DNA of 13,907 nucleotides from a virus: the IMG/VR virus record IMGVR_UViG_3300035698_021910, positions 1-13,907 of that record; one strand, given 5' to 3'. A program made the translations under genes and the position numbers. The notes beneath the pieces were generated by a model. It was not told where the DNA came from. It did no database searches and saw only the letters and a list, made by a program, of their open reading frames with translations. Shown one piece after another: positions 1 to 13,907 of the stretch (the stretch's first letter is position 1; every line of letters begins with the position of its first letter).

Positions 1-127
1 GGGCTAAATTTATTATAATGATTAGCCCCCTGTCTTGTCAAATCTTTTCTACAAGATTTTTTGTTAATATTGTTGTGGATAACCTCCGCCATTATTTTGG
101 TTTCCGTTGTTCTGATTTTGGTTGCCA
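1..127. repeat. Terminal direct repeat, copy 1 (exact duplicate of 13781-13907); marks a circular or permuted genome assembly
   Basis: The 127 nt from gggctaaatttattataatg to ttctgattttggttgcca are identical at both window ends. The boundaries fall inside a G-run of a hairpin stem and inside the CDS 64..279, so they look arbitrary rather than biological. Confidence 0.9.
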
Positions 128-279
128 GCTCCTTTAGTGTTCCACGATATTGATTGAAGTTCCTGCAAAACGCATTCAAATTTGGCTTTGCCCGGTCGGA
201 ATAATTTGCATTCAGAATTACATAAAACTTTGTTTTTCCCAGTACTCATGAAAGGGCATATTTTTTTATCATCAGACAT
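64..279 (-). CDS. Hypothetical small protein (71 aa) with four Cys and an N/Q/G-rich C-terminal tail
   Basis: ORF track. Cys at positions 8, 20, 24 and 36; low-complexity tail GAGNQNQNNGNQNNGGGYPQQY. It is the last gene of the minus-strand series and is followed by hairpins. No family recognised. Confidence 0.5.
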   Translation of the reverse strand: MSDDKKICPFMSTGKNKVLCNSECKLFRPGKAKFECVLQELQSISWNTKGAGNQNQNNGNQNNGGGYPQQY

Positions 280-739: not shown

Positions 740-1003
740 TTAGTTGTGGCTTAATAAAACCATTAGAACATGAGATTTTTCTGACAATTTAGTACAGATA
801 AATCTTTCAAATGCAATAACTTTTTTTATTGTGCAGTTACATTTTTTAGAAATTTGTTTTTGTGTTTTCCTTGCGGGGCTGTTGTCCGTTTGCAAAACAC
901 GATTTAAAATAATAATAAGAATTAATCGTTTATCCTCATCATCATCAAATTTTTCACGAATGTCCTTTTTTAATTTTTCAGCCATTTTCAATGATTTAGT
1001 CAT
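740..1003 (-). CDS. Small putative helix-turn-helix DNA-binding protein (87 aa)
   Basis: ORF track. The segment KTQKQISKKCNCTIKKVIAFERFICTKL looks like an HTH (sigma region-4 or regulator-like), preceded by an acidic or charged N-terminus. By-eye call only. Confidence 0.4.
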   Translation of the reverse strand: MTKSLKMAEKLKKDIREKFDDDEDKRLILIIILNRVLQTDNSPARKTQKQISKKCNCTIKKVIAFERFICTKLSEKSHVLMVLLSHN

Positions 1004-1589: not shown

Positions 1590-1617
1590 ATTATATCATA
1601 TCGGTTACCGATGTCAA
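1590..1617 (-). promoter_or_regulatory. Consensus sigma70-type promoter (minus strand) with a palindromic operator in the spacer
   Basis: The minus strand reads TTGACA (1617-1612), a 16-nt spacer, then TGaTATAAT (extended -10; TATAAT = 1595-1590). The 13-bp palindrome ATCGGT-T-ACCGAT (1600-1612) fills the spacer. It lies about 45 nt upstream of the ATG at 1545. Confidence 0.65.
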
Positions 1618-7004: not shown

Positions 7005-8159
7005 TTAAGTAATTCCATACATTCTAGTACCTCCACCATTTGATACTCTCATTGTGTATTCACCCAAAATTTGAATAGCAAGTTGCTTTCCGTTAGTTTT
7101 GTCATAAACGGGATAAGTAGCAAAAGCACCACCTTGCCCTTTGACACCACCGTCCAAAGGTCCATAACCAACTCTATTATAATCTAAGATTAAAGCCTCA
7201 TCTGATCGCATGTGTTTATCAACATGCAATTCGATTTCATAACCCAAAACAACTATAGTATTTATTTCAGTACCACCTTTTTTATCACTAACTTTAGTTC
7301 TAACAGCACCTTGATATAATTGCTCTATATCTCCAATAGATTCTGGAGAACCATGAATAGCAGACGGATATAATCCGCCGTCAATATGAGCGGTAACAGC
7401 AGTATAGATTTTGGCAACAGATAAAGCACCACCAACATTTGAAGTAATCGTGATAAATTCACGAAGTCCGCCCATTGTACCAATAAAATTAGTAGTGTCC
7501 AAATCAACAACACCTTCGAGCATAGTATAATTCAAACTTTTTAATAATTCCTTTAACTTTTTAACTACTTGATAATCCAATTCATCACCATTTGCCATTT
7601 TAGATCTTCGAAGTGTACCAGAAATTTGTGCAACATCTTCAAAAATTTGAGTATAATTTAAGCCAGCAGTTTGAGCGGTAAAATTAGCGGCGATAGGGTC
7701 GCCATTTTCGATTTGAGCATTACCAATGATTTTACAAACATGAGAACTATCGTGAGCCAAAACAGCAGCAGTTGAAGAACCGTGTCCACGGGCATAAACA
7801 TCTATAGATAAAGCGGCCAAAGCTGAAACAATCATAATCTCATCTGCATCAGTCAATAAAACATCGCCAATCCGCAATTTTAATCGGTCAGGTGCAGTAA
7901 TTGGTAAAGCAGTTTTATCAGAGGTAGTGTCCCAATCGGCAGCGTCCCCGCTGGCGGTAACTGTTATATATTCAGACCTTGCGGCATCGTCAAGCCATTC
8001 GTGCTTTTGAGCAGTAACCTTTTTATTAAAAGCCTTTTCAATAGAGGGTAAAAAATTAATAAATGATAAATATTTCATATCATCATCTTTTAGTGCCAAA
8101 ATGTCAATGACACTACTTAAATCTTCTCGCTCTCGTCTATTAGTTGTAATTAAATCCAT
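7005..8159 (-). CDS. Major capsid protein (HK97-fold type), 384 aa
   Basis: The track ORF 7005..8378 is trimmed to Met74 (ATG at 8159, MDLITTNRRE...). The upstream 73 codons overlap the scaffold ORF and are K-rich filler. The gene follows portal and scaffold. Motifs HEWLDD and NYTQIFED, plus the Gly/Ala-rich core, resemble capsid families I remember. Confidence 0.8.
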   Translation of the reverse strand: MDLITTNRREREDLSSVIDILALKDDDMKYLSFINFLPSIEKAFNKKVTAQKHEWLDDAARSEYITVTASGDAADWDTTSDKTALPITAPDRLKLRIGDVLLTDADEIMIVSALAALSIDVYARGHGSSTAAVLAHDSSHVCKIIGNAQIENGDPIAANFTAQTAGLNYTQIFEDVAQISGTLRRSKMANGDELDYQVVKKLKELLKSLNYTMLEGVVDLDTTNFIGTMGGLREFITITSNVGGALSVAKIYTAVTAHIDGGLYPSAIHGSPESIGDIEQLYQGAVRTKVSDKKGGTEINTIVVLGYEIELHVDKHMRSDEALILDYNRVGYGPLDGGVKGQGGAFATYPVYDKTNGKQLAIQILGEYTMRVSNGGGTRMYGIT

Positions 8160-8166
8160 ATTATTA

Positions 8167-8760
8167 TTATACAGGTAAATTTTCTTTCTGCCGATTAAGT
8201 TTGAGTATATCGACAGCTGAACTTTCACCGTTTTTAGTTTTATCTTCTTTAACTTTATCGATTGCCTCGTCAAAATCTGCCTCGGTTGAAAAACTAGGTG
8301 GTGCAAAATGTTGACTATCGCCATACATTTTTTTATTGACTTCTCGTTGTTTATCAACAATTTTTTCAATCTCATCATTACTTTTTCCGATTAAAAATTC
8401 GGGAAGTATATCAGGATAAGTTTTTTGCAAAACTTCCGATTGATGAGCTGTATTCATCACCTCAATATTTTTAGTTAAGTCTTCAACAGTCTTGCTTAAA
8501 TTTTCGATTTTTTTTTCAGAGTCCGACTTTTTGTCGTCATTTGTTTTTTTAATTTTTTCAAAATCCTCTTCAATTTTTTTTAAATCTAAATCTTTTTGAC
8601 TAAGCGTTTTTTGAAGTTTTTTAAAGTCTTCATCTTTTTTGAACTTACCGCTTGATTTTTCAAAAAGTTTACTAAAATCTTCAGGACTTATTGAATCAGG
8701 CAGAGTTTTTTCGTCAAGGTTTAAAAAGGTTCTAAACATTAACAGTAATTTTTTATCCAT
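8167..8760 (-). CDS. Scaffolding protein (197 aa)
   Basis: ORF track. Extremely K/E/D-rich and helical or coiled-coil-like. It lies between portal and capsid, and its stop is 7 nt before the capsid ATG. Confidence 0.6.
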   Translation of the reverse strand: MDKKLLLMFRTFLNLDEKTLPDSISPEDFSKLFEKSSGKFKKDEDFKKLQKTLSQKDLDLKKIEEDFEKIKKTNDDKKSDSEKKIENLSKTVEDLTKNIEVMNTAHQSEVLQKTYPDILPEFLIGKSNDEIEKIVDKQREVNKKMYGDSQHFAPPSFSTEADFDEAIDKVKEDKTKNGESSAVDILKLNRQKENLPV

Positions 8761-10224: not shown

Positions 10225-11589
10225 TTAACCGTCAACAGTTCCATAAGTATTAGTTATAACAGGAATTTTAGAGCAAGCAACAGCTAAAGCCATTAAATTA
10301 TCAGTCTCAAGATTTCCGTCGGCTCGTTGGTAAGTGGTCATTTCGTCGGCAAGTTCGGGAATATAAGGAGATTGAATTAATCCACCGTCAATAACAGCCT
10401 GAAGATGATCAAGCAAAAAATCTTTATTTCCACCACGGAAATCGACGGGGTGGACTACATCCATACACATTTCCCACAAAGTATCACCGACACCAGTACT
10501 ATCCATAAAAGATTGAGAACCACTTTCAAGTTGGGCGGTCCTAATTTCTTTTTCCATAGACGACGGAGCTTTGATTTCATTTTCTTTATTAAAATTTTCA
10601 CGTCCTTTTTCAGTCCAAGGTAATTGAAAAGCCCAACGCTTAACTATTTTATAAGGTTTTTTTCCTTTTAGAATACGGAAGCCAACAGTTTGGTCAGATA
10701 AACTTCCACGACGACCACGTGCTAAATCCCAACCCTCAATATAATCATAACCATTTTCAACAATATCAGTTAAATCAAGTTTATTATTGAAAAGTTTATC
10801 AACTCTTGAGGCAAACATCATTTCAGCAGTATCAATAAATTTTCCTTTGACAATTTGGTCTATTTTATTTTTACTCCAAGTTGAACAAAGATAATCAAAA
10901 AGTTTATGATCAATATGTGGATTTTCATAGGAAGTACCGCCACGAATAAATCCGCCTTTCCTTTCAATATCATTTTTAATTCGATAATAAGAATTAAAAC
11001 CTTTTGGCGTGGCATAAAAATCAAGTTGGCTATCTTTCCATTTTCTAGTCCTAGGAAGCAAAATTTTTTCGCGAATAAATTCAAGGTGTCTTTCGAGAGC
11101 AATTTCGTCAGCGGAAATATAACCGTATTCTTTACCCTCAATACTTTCACCTTTTCTTTTAGTGGTTTTAAATTCGGTACAAGCACCATTTTTGAAACGG
11201 ATTTGAGGGTAAGGATGATGAACAACATCTTTTTTAATATCACAAAACCAAGTACCAAGTAAGGGACTATGAGAAATTAAAGCAATCATTCGTTCGAGTA
11301 CAAGCTCTGATAATTCTTGAGTAATAGCAACATTTAAAGTTTTATATTTTTCACAATCAAGATAATGATACAATAAAAATCTCAAATGCTTTTTAGCAAT
11401 AACATCAGTTTTGCCCCAACCATTGCCCGGATGCAATAAATTTTCTTTTTTAGTAGAATTTTTAAGCCAATCTAATTGTCCCGGATGACTTTTATAATCA
11501 AGAACCAAATCATCAAAAGCAGACCAATCATTGTCAGTTTCAATAAGTTTCAAAGAGAAAGCTATAATATTTAATATTTTTTTATTCAT
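10225..11589 (-). CDS. terL: Terminase large subunit
   Basis: ORF track (454 aa). Walker A-like HPGNGWGKTD, Walker B-like GYISADEIA, YATPKG coupling-type motif, and C-terminal nuclease-type acidic motifs GWDLARG, MDSTGVGD and ETDNLMA. Confidence 0.9.
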   Translation of the reverse strand: MNKKILNIIAFSLKLIETDNDWSAFDDLVLDYKSHPGQLDWLKNSTKKENLLHPGNGWGKTDVIAKKHLRFLLYHYLDCEKYKTLNVAITQELSELVLERMIALISHSPLLGTWFCDIKKDVVHHPYPQIRFKNGACTEFKTTKRKGESIEGKEYGYISADEIALERHLEFIREKILLPRTRKWKDSQLDFYATPKGFNSYYRIKNDIERKGGFIRGGTSYENPHIDHKLFDYLCSTWSKNKIDQIVKGKFIDTAEMMFASRVDKLFNNKLDLTDIVENGYDYIEGWDLARGRRGSLSDQTVGFRILKGKKPYKIVKRWAFQLPWTEKGRENFNKENEIKAPSSMEKEIRTAQLESGSQSFMDSTGVGDTLWEMCMDVVHPVDFRGGNKDFLLDHLQAVIDGGLIQSPYIPELADEMTTYQRADGNLETDNLMALAVACSKIPVITNTYGTVDG

Positions 11590-11626
11590 TTTTTTAAAAG
11601 TAAAAAAATTATTTCTTCGATAGATT

Positions 11627-11710
11627 TTTGAGTTTTTTTTAAAGATGAAAAGTGAAAAAAGCGTTTGAGTTTTTTTTTAAAAATGAAAAGTAAAAAAGCG
11701 TTTGAGTTTT
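11627..11710. repeat. 2.3 tandem copies of a 37-bp repeat just upstream of the terL start
   Basis: Copies are TTTGAGTTTTTTTTAAAGATGAAAAGTGAAAAAAGCG (11627-11663), TTTGAGTTTTTTTTTAAAAATGAAAAGTAAAAAAGCG (11664-11700) and a partial TTTGAGTTTT (11701-11710). Confidence 0.85.
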
Positions 11711-11780
11711 CTCCGAAATCTTAATATATATAACACCCCCACTCTTTTGTTTTTGCTTTTTAAACATTAAACATTCAATA

Positions 11781-11960
11781 TTTAAACATTTAAACATTCA
11801 AGTTTCAACATTTAAACATTTAAACATTCAAGTTTCAACATTTAAACATTTAAACATTCAAGTTTCAACATTTAAACATTAAAACATTCAAGTTTCAACA
11901 TTTAAACATTAAAACATTCAAGTTTCAACATTTAAACATTAAAACATTCAAGTTTCAACA
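11781..11960. repeat. Six head-to-tail copies of a 30-bp unit (iteron-like array)
   Basis: The unit is TTTAAACATT(T/A)AAACATTCAAGTTTCAACA. Copies 1-3 carry T at unit position 11 and copies 4-6 carry A; otherwise they are identical. A degenerate partial copy lies at about 11759-11780. Each unit holds three AACATT hexamers spaced 8 and 14 nt apart. There are no spacers, so it is not a CRISPR array. Confidence 0.95.
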
Positions 11961-12160
11961 TTAAAGATTAAATAAGATGAAGATATAACAAACAAAGTTA
12001 AATAACATCATTAAATACAATATTGATATTGTACTTAATACTATTAAATAAGATAATAATACAACAAGATTAACAAAATTTAATAAACAAGACATAAATA
12101 ATACTAATTAATATACTATATATAGCCATACAAACAAGTAATATGTAACAATATATAGTA
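11961..12160. other. Extremely AT-rich, A-biased tract; candidate DNA-unwinding or bent region
   Basis: A manual count gives about 14 G and 19 C in 200 nt (about 16-17% GC). A greatly exceeds T on the plus strand, opposite to the coding regions, where the plus strand is T-rich. It directly abuts the 30-bp array. Confidence 0.5.
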
Positions 12161-12332
12161 ATACCACACCGCCCGACATTCAATTCACCTAATAGTCAAG
12201 ACTAAACCGCCCAACATTCAATCTTCCTAAGCACTAATATAGCTTAATATTGCCACAAAAGCTATGAATATATAACAATATAAAGCGATACCACTCCGCC
12301 AAATTACTGATTGACCTAATAACTAAGATTAA
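12138..12332. repeat. Degenerate ~67-bp direct repeat (12138-12205 and 12266-12332) with an extra half-copy (12204-12237), each carrying a CCGCC(C) core
   Basis: ATACCACACCGCCCGACATTCAATTCACCTAATAGTCAAGACTAA aligned with ATACCACTCCGCCAAATTACTGATTGACCTAATAACTAAGATTAA gives 31/45 identical without gaps, by hand. AACCGCCCAACATTCAATCTTCCTAAGCACTAA is a third related site. Confidence 0.6.
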
Positions 12333-12371
12333 TCCGAATAGAACTTCAAATGGATTAACTCCAAAAAGGAT

Positions 12372-12448
12372 GTCTAATTTGATACTCTTTTTACAACTCC
12401 CTCTTCACTTGAAAGTGAACCCGTTGTAAAAAGAGTATCAAATTAGAC
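12372..12448. repeat. Perfect 26-bp inverted repeat (77-nt hairpin or cruciform) with a nested mini-hairpin in the loop
   Basis: GTCTAATTTGATACTCTTTTTACAAC (12372-12397) is the exact reverse complement of GTTGTAAAAAGAGTATCAAATTAGAC (12423-12448). The 25-nt loop contains TTCACT-tgaa-AGTGAA (12404-12419). Confidence 0.95.
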
Positions 12449-12501
12449 TTTATCACTGCGGGATTAGCTCTAATGCTTCCTATTCTGCAATGGTTAGGCA
12501 T

Positions 12502-12527
12502 CATCGCATAATGTATATTAAGCGAAG
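12502..12527. promoter_or_regulatory. Imperfect 26-bp palindrome, copy 1 (CATCGCATAAT-gtat-ATTAAGCGAAG)
   Basis: It is self-complementary and also complementary to copy 2: 12505-12528 against 12621-12644 gives 24 bp with one G.T position. It is followed by TAGCC, as copy 2 is followed by AAGCC. Confidence 0.6.
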
Positions 12528-12621
12528 TAGCCTCAAACTTTAACTTTATTTAAAACTATATCGCGGGGCATTTAACTATAAGATATTACATATCATTTAC
12601 TAAAAAATAAAGCAGTACTAA

Positions 12622-12647
12622 CTTCGCTTAATATGCATTATGCGAAG
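12622..12647. promoter_or_regulatory. Imperfect 26-bp palindrome, copy 2 (CTTCGCTTAAT-atgc-ATTATGCGAAG)
   Basis: Same architecture as copy 1, with centres 120 bp apart. Direct alignment of the 28-nt cores gives 22/28 identity by hand. Confidence 0.6.
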
Positions 12648-12816
12648 AAGCCCACTTTTAACTGCCTGCGTGTACTCTGTTCTTTTACTGTTTATCTAGT
12701 TGGCTTCTGCTAGCTCGTTTTCTTTTGCAAATTTCCTGCTTAGCCAATTCCATATGTGAGAAATTTAAACTTAAATTTAACAAGAAAACTTTTTTTATTC
12801 CTGCCTCGTGTCATTT

Positions 12817-12888
12817 GTAGCTACCGCCCCCCGGTCTTTCCGCCCTGCGGGCGATATTACTTGCTCGTCCCTACTTCCTGCCGGGGCG
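12817..12888. ncRNA. GC-rich nested stem-loop element; candidate structured RNA of unknown class and undetermined strand
   Basis: Palindrome GTAGCTAC (12817-12824). Outer helix CGCCCC (12825-12830) with GGGGCG (12883-12888), or the alternative register CCCCGG with CCGGGG. Inner hairpin CGCCC-tgc-GGGCG (12841-12853). An alternative GGGCGA/TCGTCCC pairing is also possible. Local GC is about double the genome average. Confidence 0.35.
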
Positions 12889-13024
12889 AACTCATCATTC
12901 ATTCCAGCTAGTATTTATTGCAATTTTTTATTTTCAATTAGTCCAAGTCTTTTAATTAAAGGTTATTTACACAACTGCTAAAACTTTTGTGCTTTTAAAA
13001 ACTATCCCTTTTGTTGCACACAAA

Positions 13025-13564
13025 TTAAGTTTTAAATAAAACTGCCTGCTCATTCATTTGTAATCCGTATTTATCAGTCGCTTTTTGGAATACAGCTAGA
13101 ACATCTTTATTGTCTAAATTGTCGCCCTGTAATATTTGATAACGGATTTTAGCTAATTTTTCTAAATCAGAAATATCAATTTTATAGCTATTAGTATTCA
13201 TGGCATTTAAAATTTTATCATAAGCTAGATCAAGTAATTGAACAGTTTTTTGTAGATGAACTGATTGACTGGTGATTTCCTCGAGCGTCTCATTCTTAAT
13301 AATTTTAGTTGCTACATTTCTTTTATAATCAGCATAATTTTTAAAATGACGACATAGGCTAGCAGGCGAAACGCTATAACCAAACTGCTCCGAACACGCA
13401 ATAACTATCTCATCAAATGTTTTCCCGTTTTTTCTTAATTTATGAATTTCAGGTAAATAGCCAGAGTTACAGATTGAACAACGAGCGTCGCATATCTTTT
13501 CGTCAATTCCGCAAGATTTAAGTTGAGAGTCGATTGTTTTTTTTTCTTCGATAGTTTTATTCAT
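13025..13564 (-). CDS. Cys4 + helix-turn-helix DNA-binding protein (179 aa); small-terminase-like or replication/packaging initiator candidate
   Basis: ORF track. N-terminal CX6CX3CX2C cluster, an HTH-like segment GKTFDEIVIACSEQFGYSVSPASLCRHFKNY, and a helical C-terminal half. It is upstream of terL on the same strand but separated from it by 1.43 kb. Confidence 0.4.
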   Translation of the reverse strand: MNKTIEEKKTIDSQLKSCGIDEKICDARCSICNSGYLPEIHKLRKNGKTFDEIVIACSEQFGYSVSPASLCRHFKNYADYKRNVATKIIKNETLEEITSQSVHLQKTVQLLDLAYDKILNAMNTNSYKIDISDLEKLAKIRYQILQGDNLDNKDVLAVFQKATDKYGLQMNEQAVLFKT

Positions 13565-13672
13565 TGTTGAAAGTTATCCACAGCCCTTAGTGAGCGAGTT
13601 TAAAAAAGTGAGAATGATAATGATAGTTATTACTTTAGTAAGTTAGTAGTTAGTTAGTAAGTAACTAACTTA

Positions 13673-13701: not shown

Positions 13702-13778
13702 GCCTGTGGAAAAGGGGCTTATTTATCCACCTACTTATCCACAAGGACTAATCCCATAATTTGGGACCTATAAGAATG

Positions 13779-13810
13779 GGGGGCTAAATTTATTATAATG
13801 ATTAGCCCCC
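13779..13810 (-). terminator. GC-capped 9-bp hairpin at the end of the minus-strand gene series
   Basis: GGGGGCTAA (13779-13787), a 14-nt loop, TTAGCCCCC (13802-13810). On the minus strand it follows the stop of CDS 64..279 (across the circular junction) and is followed by AUUCUUAU. Copy 1 (1-30) is truncated by the window edge. Confidence 0.5.
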
Positions 13811-13907
13811 TGTCTTGTCAAATCTTTTCTACAAGATTTTTTGTTAATATTGTTGTGGATAACCTCCGCCATTATTTTGGTTTCCGTTGTTCTGATTTTG
13901 GTTGCCA
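13781..13907. repeat. Terminal direct repeat, copy 2 (exact duplicate of 1-127)
   Basis: Identical 127 nt. It includes the 3' part of the same CDS as 64..127, so it is not an independent gene. Confidence 0.9.
13792..13821 (-). promoter_or_regulatory. Near-consensus sigma70-type promoter embedded in the hairpin (also at 12-41)
   Basis: The minus strand reads TTGACA (13821-13816), an 18-nt spacer, then TATAAT (13797-13792). The -10 hexamer lies in the loop of the 13779-13810 hairpin. Confidence 0.45.

Follow-up and report, generated by a model that had tools for sequence, protein, structure and literature searches.

A hypervariable 30-bp tandem array upstream of the terL-led operon of a very small uncultured tailed phage

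Why does a very small tailed phage carry a long tandem array of short direct repeats in its only large non-coding region? The question is raised by IMG/VR virus record IMGVR_UViG_3300035698_021910, analysed here over its full 13,907 nucleotides (nt; hereafter the window), in which an array of 30-bp units lies between terL, the large terminase gene, and the gene for a 179-amino-acid (aa) helix–turn–helix (HTH) protein. A first-pass annotation, made from the sequence alone, likened the array to iteron origins and proposed a multimeric binding platform for a phage DNA-binding protein, with the 179-aa protein as the obvious candidate. Such a platform is plausible from sequence. Here we report that the number of units differs between near-identical genomes, and we tentatively read the array as serial docking sites that would be bound by a phage HTH protein in front of the late/packaging operon. 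Either a tunable docking or regulatory array or a neutral minisatellite is more likely than a replication origin. The principal features are as follows.

11759–11969, no strand assigned: 30-bp tandem array
10225–11589, minus strand: terL, large terminase (Pfam Terminase_6N, E 6e-7; relatives agree), heading the packaging and structural operon
11590–13024: 1,435-bp non-coding gap between terL and the 179-aa open reading frame (ORF), holding the array
13025–13564, minus strand: 179-aa Zn(CCCH)-HTH protein, probable small terminase (TerS)

Anatomy and copy number of the array

Tandem Repeats Finder (TRF) describes the array as having period 30, 7.1 copies and 96% matches, with a score of 359, and its longest exact period-30 run is 81 nt, compared with a maximum of 11 in 200 shuffles. 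As first annotated, six contiguous units at 11781–11960 differ solely at position 11, which is T in units 1–3 and A in units 4–6. The estimate of about 20 AACATT hexamers was borne out by a count of 20 at 11763–11962, spaced 8, 8 and 14 nt apart in the regular part, with one more at 12213, and all nine plus-strand positions given for the 8-mer ACATTCAA (11771, 11794, 11824, 11854, 11884, 11914, 11944, 12176 and 12214) proved correct. The 8-mer had been thought absent from the rest of the genome; two minus-strand copies exist, at 1186 and 1337, bringing the genome-wide count to 11 against 1.36 expected, and these two outliers fit chance. Read on the minus (transcribed) strand, the array consists of 28 contiguous sub-repeats of 7–8 bp, (TTGAAAC TTGAATG TTTWAATG TTTAAATG)n, with autocorrelation peaks at lags of 7–8 and 30. 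It is a hierarchical satellite. The same 30-bp unit is present in independent assemblies from at least five other datasets and is therefore not an assembly artefact. A search of IMG/VR with an exact 19-mer of the array gave two single-copy matches, both in apparently coding regions of unrelated contigs and attributable to chance. The array was also rejected as coding sequence: all three minus-strand frames contain stops, the open plus-strand frame has no start codon on manual inspection, and all genes lie on the minus strand.

The identical 179-aa protein is found in six contigs of other datasets, and the array is retained in six independent contigs of the window lineage. Contigs L015–L018 are 99.5–99.9% identical to the window by BLAST, and alignment of the gap shows zero differences outside the array. 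Within it, copy number is approximately 3, 7 or 9 among near-identical contigs and never zero. The alleles differ in the number of units of each type:

L015 and L017: one TTTTAATG-type unit and one TTTAAATG-type unit
Window: three TTTTAATG-type units and three TTTAAATG-type units
L016: three TTTTAATG-type units and five TTTAAATG-type units
L014, a slightly diverged strain: one unit of each type plus a different tail

Arrays longer than the assembly k-mer may be under-counted, so that such alleles may be lower bounds, and iterative assemblers could in principle collapse repeats; the short allele, however, was seen in the diverged strain as well as in two assemblies made independently. Even this shortest allele has three 8-mer boxes in addition to the two outlying ones. 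Given that near-identical contigs have different copy numbers, copy number changes much faster than point mutation, and it does so by unit-wise expansion inside homogeneous blocks. The 1+1, 3+3 and 3+5 alleles contradict the earlier suggestion that a 90-bp block had been duplicated. Free copy-number variation, or loss of the array, in otherwise identical genomes had been named in advance as evidence against a binding platform; the variation is present and the loss was never seen. Copy-number polymorphism among otherwise identical genomes is a feature that the array shares with promoter-associated variable-number tandem repeats.

These observations make a neutral or near-neutral minisatellite a serious rival, if a rather unlikely one in our estimate. 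On this account a slippage-prone, AT-rich non-coding region expanded a short motif that has no sequence-specific role. The presence of about 3, 7 and 9 copies in an otherwise unchanged gap fits such an origin, and both the hierarchical 7–8-bp and 30-bp structure and the block-wise expansion are typical of slippage. A second tandem repeat, of 37 bp, adjoins the array, most relatives have no array, and unrelated AT-rich arrays occur elsewhere in the family, for example directly downstream of terL in lineages L006 (2669–2779; 11 bp, 9.7 copies) and L007 (8081–8271; 9 or 14 bp, 10–20 copies). Three points speak for more than neutral drift: the retention of the array in six independent contigs, the recurrence of the 8-mer outside it in two GC-box sites, and the persistence at the same place of a related ATGTT-core array in a lineage with no more than 78% TerL identity and a gap that otherwise cannot be aligned.

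The control region upstream of terL

About 170 bp separate the end of the array from the terL ATG; the probable terS lies upstream, at a distance of 1.05–1.27 kb. Taken in transcriptional order, the elements of the gap are a GC-rich segment, the inverted repeat I1, a hairpin with a T-run, two 127-bp direct repeats, a 190-bp AT tract, the 30-bp array, a −10-like box, a 37-bp repeat and the terL ATG.

12621–12652 and 12497–12528: arms of the long inverted repeat I1, minus-strand reading TTCGCATAACGCAyATTnnnnCGAAGT ... ACTTCGnnnnAATrTnCGTTATGCGA
12372–12448: terminator-like hairpin with perfect 26-bp arms and a 25-nt loop, followed by a minus-strand T-run (ATCCTTTTTGG)
12120–12336: two 127-bp direct repeats (families D3/D8) with three GC boxes in all, two of them fused to the 8-mer
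12176–12183 and 12214–12221 (region 12160–12230): two outlying ACATTCAA boxes, each fused to a GC box (CCGCCCRACATTCAA)
11963–12162: AT-rich tract between the array and the outlying boxes, GC fraction 0.17
11998–12023 and 12026–12051: arms of a near-palindrome in the AT tract, core TACAATAT-TG-ATATTGTA
11967–11991 and 12043–12067: 25-nt direct repeats flanking the near-palindrome
11727–11735, minus strand: TGTTATATA, an extended −10-like box by consensus resemblance only, 23 bp downstream of the array end in the direction of transcription
11627–11710, no strand assigned: 37-bp repeat, 2.3 copies (TRF), between the array and the terL start

What could an array at this place do? We propose that a short TTGAAx/AATGTT box, expanded in tandem and hypervariable in the control region that leads into the terL-headed late operon, would dock either a small phage HTH protein or region 4 of a sigma factor or the C-terminal domain of the alpha subunit (alpha-CTD) of RNA polymerase, and that docking would modulate transcription of the packaging and structural genes. 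The favoured candidate binder is an 87-aa protein resembling sigma region 4, with the TerS-like protein as an alternative. Replication slippage or unequal recombination would rapidly alter the number of sites, the copy number either drifting or being tuned by slippage; in different natural populations the 8-mer box is present 3 to 11 times. Protein binding, the identity of the binder and the effect on transcription are all inferred.

The docking proposal is favoured in part because tandem duplications recur at the terL promoter region across lineages. Among approximately 26 non-redundant lineages compared, the ATGTT core is enriched upstream of terL only in the window lineage (22 per 400 bp) and in L002/L034 (11 per 400 bp); elsewhere the count is 0–3. 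L002/L034 have a 39-bp, 2.7-copy ATGTT-core array that ends about 25 bp upstream of an extended −10 motif; its last repeat supplies a −35-like TTGATT at 17-bp spacing to the −10, and in L002 the extended −10 motif stands 6 nt ahead of the terL start codon. In the TerL tree L002 neighbours the window, and their gaps align only at the array and the I1 arms (E 6e-5 to 0.03 in a database of about 26 kb). That a sister lineage has a related array in the corresponding position speaks for some function, for instance the docking of a protein. Three further lineages have tandem duplications that are unrelated to the window array yet occupy the same place upstream of terL: in L041 a 34-bp, 3.6-copy array runs directly into TGTGCTATAAT-N7-ATG at terL, in L040 a 15-bp repeat, present as a triplet, itself makes TTGACA-17-TATAAT, and in L058 a 69-bp unit consists of a palindrome and promoter-like sequence.

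A promoter-like sequence recurs in front of terL in relatives. In 10 of the 26 lineages (P ~3e-13) an extended −10 motif, TGnTAnnnT, stops 3–12 nt short of the terL ATG, being listed within the last 20 nt for L002, L005, L006, L009, L031, L033, L045, L049, L058 and G3, and this position implies a promoter and a leaderless terL mRNA in much of the family. The sub-repeats of the window array match the −35 consensus at five of six positions (TTGAAA) or four of six (TTGAAT). A possible binder of such TTGAAx-type repeats is among two small proteins that are candidate regulators by sequence:

740–1003, minus strand: 87-aa HTH protein, weakly sigma-70 region 4-like and LuxR-type
64–279, minus strand: 71-aa protein containing four Cys and a tail rich in Q, N and G; it is conserved throughout the family, its gene lying immediately upstream of the terS promoter region

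With a profile of 87-aa homologues, the best PDB match was RpoH region 4.2 (E 0.06, below significance), and Pfam Sigma70_r4 matches 2 of the 11 members of the family. The AlphaFold2 (AF2) model has a predicted local distance difference test score of 87, and its non-significant Foldseek matches include domain 4 of sigma-A and LuxR-type chains. Phage protein 2ao9 and domain 4 of sigma-A, at E of at least 0.15, were among the best matches in the Foldseek searches with the 87-aa and 179-aa models.

Several findings weigh against a docking role. A tract in or just upstream of a promoter is what the arrays of L002, L041 and L040 form; the window has only an imperfect −10-like box. TGnTAnnnT is absent from its terL-proximal segment (11590–11620), the window lineage having instead the 37-bp repeat at 11627–11710, and a canonical extended −10 is present neither close to the terL ATG nor directly following the array. 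The closest box, TGTTATATA, is missing the conserved T at −7; the promoter link therefore rests on analogy with relatives. The resemblance of the 87-aa protein to sigma region 4 is below significance, and its homologues also occur in relatives that have no array. Phylogenetic profiling for a protein that tracks the array found no ORF exclusive to array-bearing lineages. About 20 of the related lineages do without any such array, and a neutral minisatellite would equally show free copy-number variation. If the array is nevertheless a docking platform of changing size, it would be a simple natural case of a phage tuning late expression or packaging by repeat number. The locus also offers a defined DNA of 1 to 9 units together with three small candidate proteins.

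Other elements of the gap are recorded here alongside the array. The two outlying boxes lie 210–250 bp further upstream than the array and belong to a 33-nt direct-repeat family whose third copy, at 12287–12319, has no 8-mer. Each 127-bp repeat contains a GC box (GGCGG...GTGGTAT, minus strand) followed by TATATTGTTAYATAT, and a similar GAGTGGGGGTGTTATATATAT follows the 30-bp array, so that the box is present three times in the gap; boxes of the form TTGTTAYATAT, resembling TGTTATATA, recur inside the 127-bp repeats. The 37-bp repeat looks like duplicated terL-proximal sequence, and by eye the sequence right before the terL ATG resembles a further partial copy. The palindrome and direct repeats of the AT tract form an operator-like layout, apparently more typical of an operator than of a DNA-unwinding element. 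The stem of I1, conserved in nine lineages, encloses a variable insert of 20–180 nt; 9 of its 25 predicted pairs have compensatory changes and almost none are broken. I1 matched no Rfam family, and it may be a structured RNA or a cruciform or single-stranded DNA element. For the GC-rich segment just downstream of terS, consensus structure prediction from a poor alignment gave zero pairs, and Rfam searches of the window and seven related loci returned only long-hairpin ‘miRNA’ noise, far under gathering scores. The gaps of relatives contain several similar long hairpins with T-runs. A GAGCGGAGCGA-like motif (GCGNAGCG) occurs in 2–12 copies in most relatives, nearly always on the transcribed strand and nearly only in the terS–terL gap (L001–L011, L031, L053, L059 and others); GCGNAGCG is wholly absent from the window. 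As candidates for a gap motif shared across the family, only GCGGAGCG (12 of 26 lineages, forward strand) and T-runs stood out.

Packaging, replication and the neighbouring genes

The 179-aa protein has a homologue in every relative examined, always upstream of terL across a non-coding gap of 0.4–1.6 kb. Its description as a Cys4-HTH protein was half right: the HTH stands, and the conserved residues are C25, C29, C32 and H41, a CCCH rather than a Cys4 set. The family matches PHROG 426, ‘terminase small subunit’, weakly (E 0.002–0.02), six of the 40 homologues hit Pfam Phage_Mu_Gp27 (E 7e-6 at best), and the AF2 model shows the HTH followed by a long helix. Foldseek gave no significant match; its top PDB entry was the G20c small terminase (E 1.5), and all E values were at least 0.1. 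Although each of these lines is weak, the conserved gene order combined with the PHROG, Pfam, AF2 and PDB matches makes TerS the best reading, and the protein is probably a small terminase. No test run identified it as a Rep-like initiator. Its most likely identity as TerS points to packaging rather than replication.

Could the array then be a packaging (pac) site? In that case a ring-shaped TerS would hold on to the repeated boxes through avidity, and terL would make the first headful cut in the AT tract, which has the array on one side and the outlying boxes on the other. We consider this possible, though on balance doubtful. The array does lie between the probable terS and terL, 8-mer boxes in a single orientation stand on either side of the 190-bp AT-rich tract, and the genome is compatible with a permuted, headful-packaged form: bases 1–127 are identical to 13781–13907, and with this exact 127-bp terminal overlap the window therefore assembles as a complete circle of about 13,780 bp. 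The short third helix of the HTH (SxASLxRHF, residues 67–73), inferred to be the recognition helix, is nearly invariant across 40 homologues. Pac DNA may differ between lineages even when the helix is invariant, and one stretch of DNA can serve both as pac and as promoter. Against a pac role, most relatives with the same TerS family and this near-invariant helix lack the array; phages with the same TerS do not share the element, which is present in 2 of about 26 lineages. The arrangement of array, AT tract and outlying boxes was not seen in L002, and the TerS assignment is itself only probable. The same comparison argues against the 179-aa protein as the specific partner of the array, as the first-pass annotation had it, since the helix is near-invariant family-wide while the array motif is lineage-specific.

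A replication origin, with the repeats acting as iterons for a phage initiator and a DNA-unwinding element adjoining them, is improbable; one variant has no initiator, the promoter-like box firing into the AT tract as in R-loop-type origins. The first-pass comparison with iterons holds for the same-orientation direct repeats (7.1 units of 30 bp and nine same-strand ACATTCAA); an AT-rich tract is adjacent, and the 30-bp spacing is arithmetically close to three helical turns. The comparison fails for an initiator gene, for DnaA boxes at the array and for conservation in relatives. Right beside the repeats, 11963–12162 is the genome's least stable 200 bp, although its distinctiveness as an unwinding element is only marginal, at z = 3.0 compared with 2.8 for the next region. 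Pfam and PHROGs searches found no Rep-like initiator among the window ORFs, the neighbours being a probable terS and terL, and no replication, partition or integration family in any ORF; a phage without a recognizable replication protein must still replicate, and so needs an unconventional origin somewhere. The array is missing in most relatives, its copy number is unconstrained, and there is no DnaA box in the gap (11590–13024). Perfect boxes do occur outside the gap, where 0.16 were expected and four were found:

13574–13582, 13735–13743, 13854–13862 (equivalent to 74–82) and 1628–1636: perfect DnaA boxes, TTATCCACA
13705–13713 and 13723–13731: DnaA boxes with one mismatch
13821–13792, minus strand: sigma-70 promoter matching at 12 of 12 positions, TTGACA-18-TATAAT
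~1590–1615, minus strand: second consensus promoter, TTGACA-16-TATAAT, an early promoter

The boxes upstream of the 179-aa gene surround the first promoter, forming a cluster 1.4 kb from the array, and the box at 1628–1636 lies just upstream of the second. DnaA-like boxes upstream of terS are kept in relatives, and in some (L009, L011 and L049) lie right at the terL promoter. The cluster is a candidate for a host-DnaA-dependent origin or a DnaA-regulated promoter. Between the boxes, 13635–13664 is a short TAG/TAA-rich tandem repeat (TTAGTAAGTTAGTAGTTAGTTAGTAAG), loosely DnaA-trio-like with imperfect 3-nt phasing. It is very improbable that the array and AT tract are the origin of a minimal tailed phage with no dedicated replication protein, the TerS-like Zn-HTH protein doubling as initiator; if so, one protein–DNA platform would couple the initiation of replication and packaging, with copy number tuning both.

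The window encodes a small tailed phage with all credible genes on the minus strand, and most of these have no Shine–Dalgarno sequence. Its further products, also on the minus strand, are:

SPP1-type portal protein
scaffold-like protein
SU10-type major capsid protein
lectin-fold protein
tail-like proteins
M23/LysM lysin
a run of small ORFs

The listed capsid ORF (7005–8378) and the scaffold-like ORF (8167–8760) share about 210 nt, and the Pfam match of the former begins only at residue 97; the true capsid start is probably an internal Met. ARAGORN found no tRNAs. The relatives are uncultured contigs of 12.5–15.7 kb with one-strand gene order, many of which also circularize. No similar cultured relative was found, the terS–terL gap is unmatched in INPHARED, and TerL and the capsid protein share just 25–28% identity with those of Serratia and Clostridium phages. 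Some relatives are binned in Parcubacteria or Moranbacteria metagenome-assembled genomes (MAGs), a host hint only. Contig WBZQ01000313.1 (41.6 kb; L044 and L052) has two distinct terL/terS sets of the family, and the 50.9-kb MAG contig JAUSEG010000006.1 (L064) has a terS homologue. The latter was rejected as host or prophage context: it has only the terS homologue, and a matching terL is absent. Both oddities may reflect tandem elements, chimeric assembly or a larger relative. The array is chiefly useful as a handle on this unstudied family of very small (13–15.7 kb) uncultured tailed phages, in which recognizable replication genes are absent and a long structured non-coding region is kept between terS and terL. 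These features around the array are more unusual than the array itself.

Comparison with known repeat systems

Iteron origins, such as lambda ori with its O-protein sites, P1 incC/incA and P4 ori/crr, resemble the locus in having multiple same-orientation short repeats beside an AT-rich, easily melted tract. They differ in that the window has neither a cognate Rep or O-type initiator gene nor an adjacent DnaA box, has 30-bp units of 7–8-bp sub-repeats instead of 17–22-bp iterons, and has an array that is hypervariable between near-identical genomes and missing in most relatives. The ribbon–helix–helix (RHH) protein omega of pSM19035 binds contiguous heptad arrays, and ParR binds parC centromeres. 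Both offer unbroken direct repeats of 7–11 bp upstream of promoters, coated by cooperative small DNA-binding proteins. In the window, by contrast, the motif is unrelated, no RHH protein was recognized, and no ORF encodes a ParA/ParM-type partition nucleoside triphosphatase or a centromere-binding protein.

The pac site of P1 contains clusters of hexamer repeats. In SPP1 and SF6, repeated boxes are arranged as pacL–pacC–pacR (PMC4737164). Like these sites, the window has direct repeats beside a (probable) small-terminase gene, overlapping putative promoter DNA, with boxes on both sides of a central tract, and as in SPP1 and SF6 the candidate binder would be an HTH protein that forms rings and has low specificity (PMC4737164). 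It departs from pac sites in the position of its repeats, which follow terS within a non-coding gap of 1.4 kb, and in their form, a long and perfect tandem array; this array is not conserved across the family.

Contingency loci, such as the TAAA tract of Neisseria nadA and the TA tract of Haemophilus hif, have units of 1–7 bp, serve bacterial surface-antigen genes and act via spacing or regulator binding; the window has a 30-bp unit upstream of a phage late operon, for which an effect on expression is proposed only. What the two have in common is a fast-changing repeat tract, upstream of or within a promoter region (a putative one in the window), that is polymorphic between otherwise identical genomes. 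Taken by itself, the array is a familiar sort of element: a tandem repeat of variable number that lies in a phage control region.

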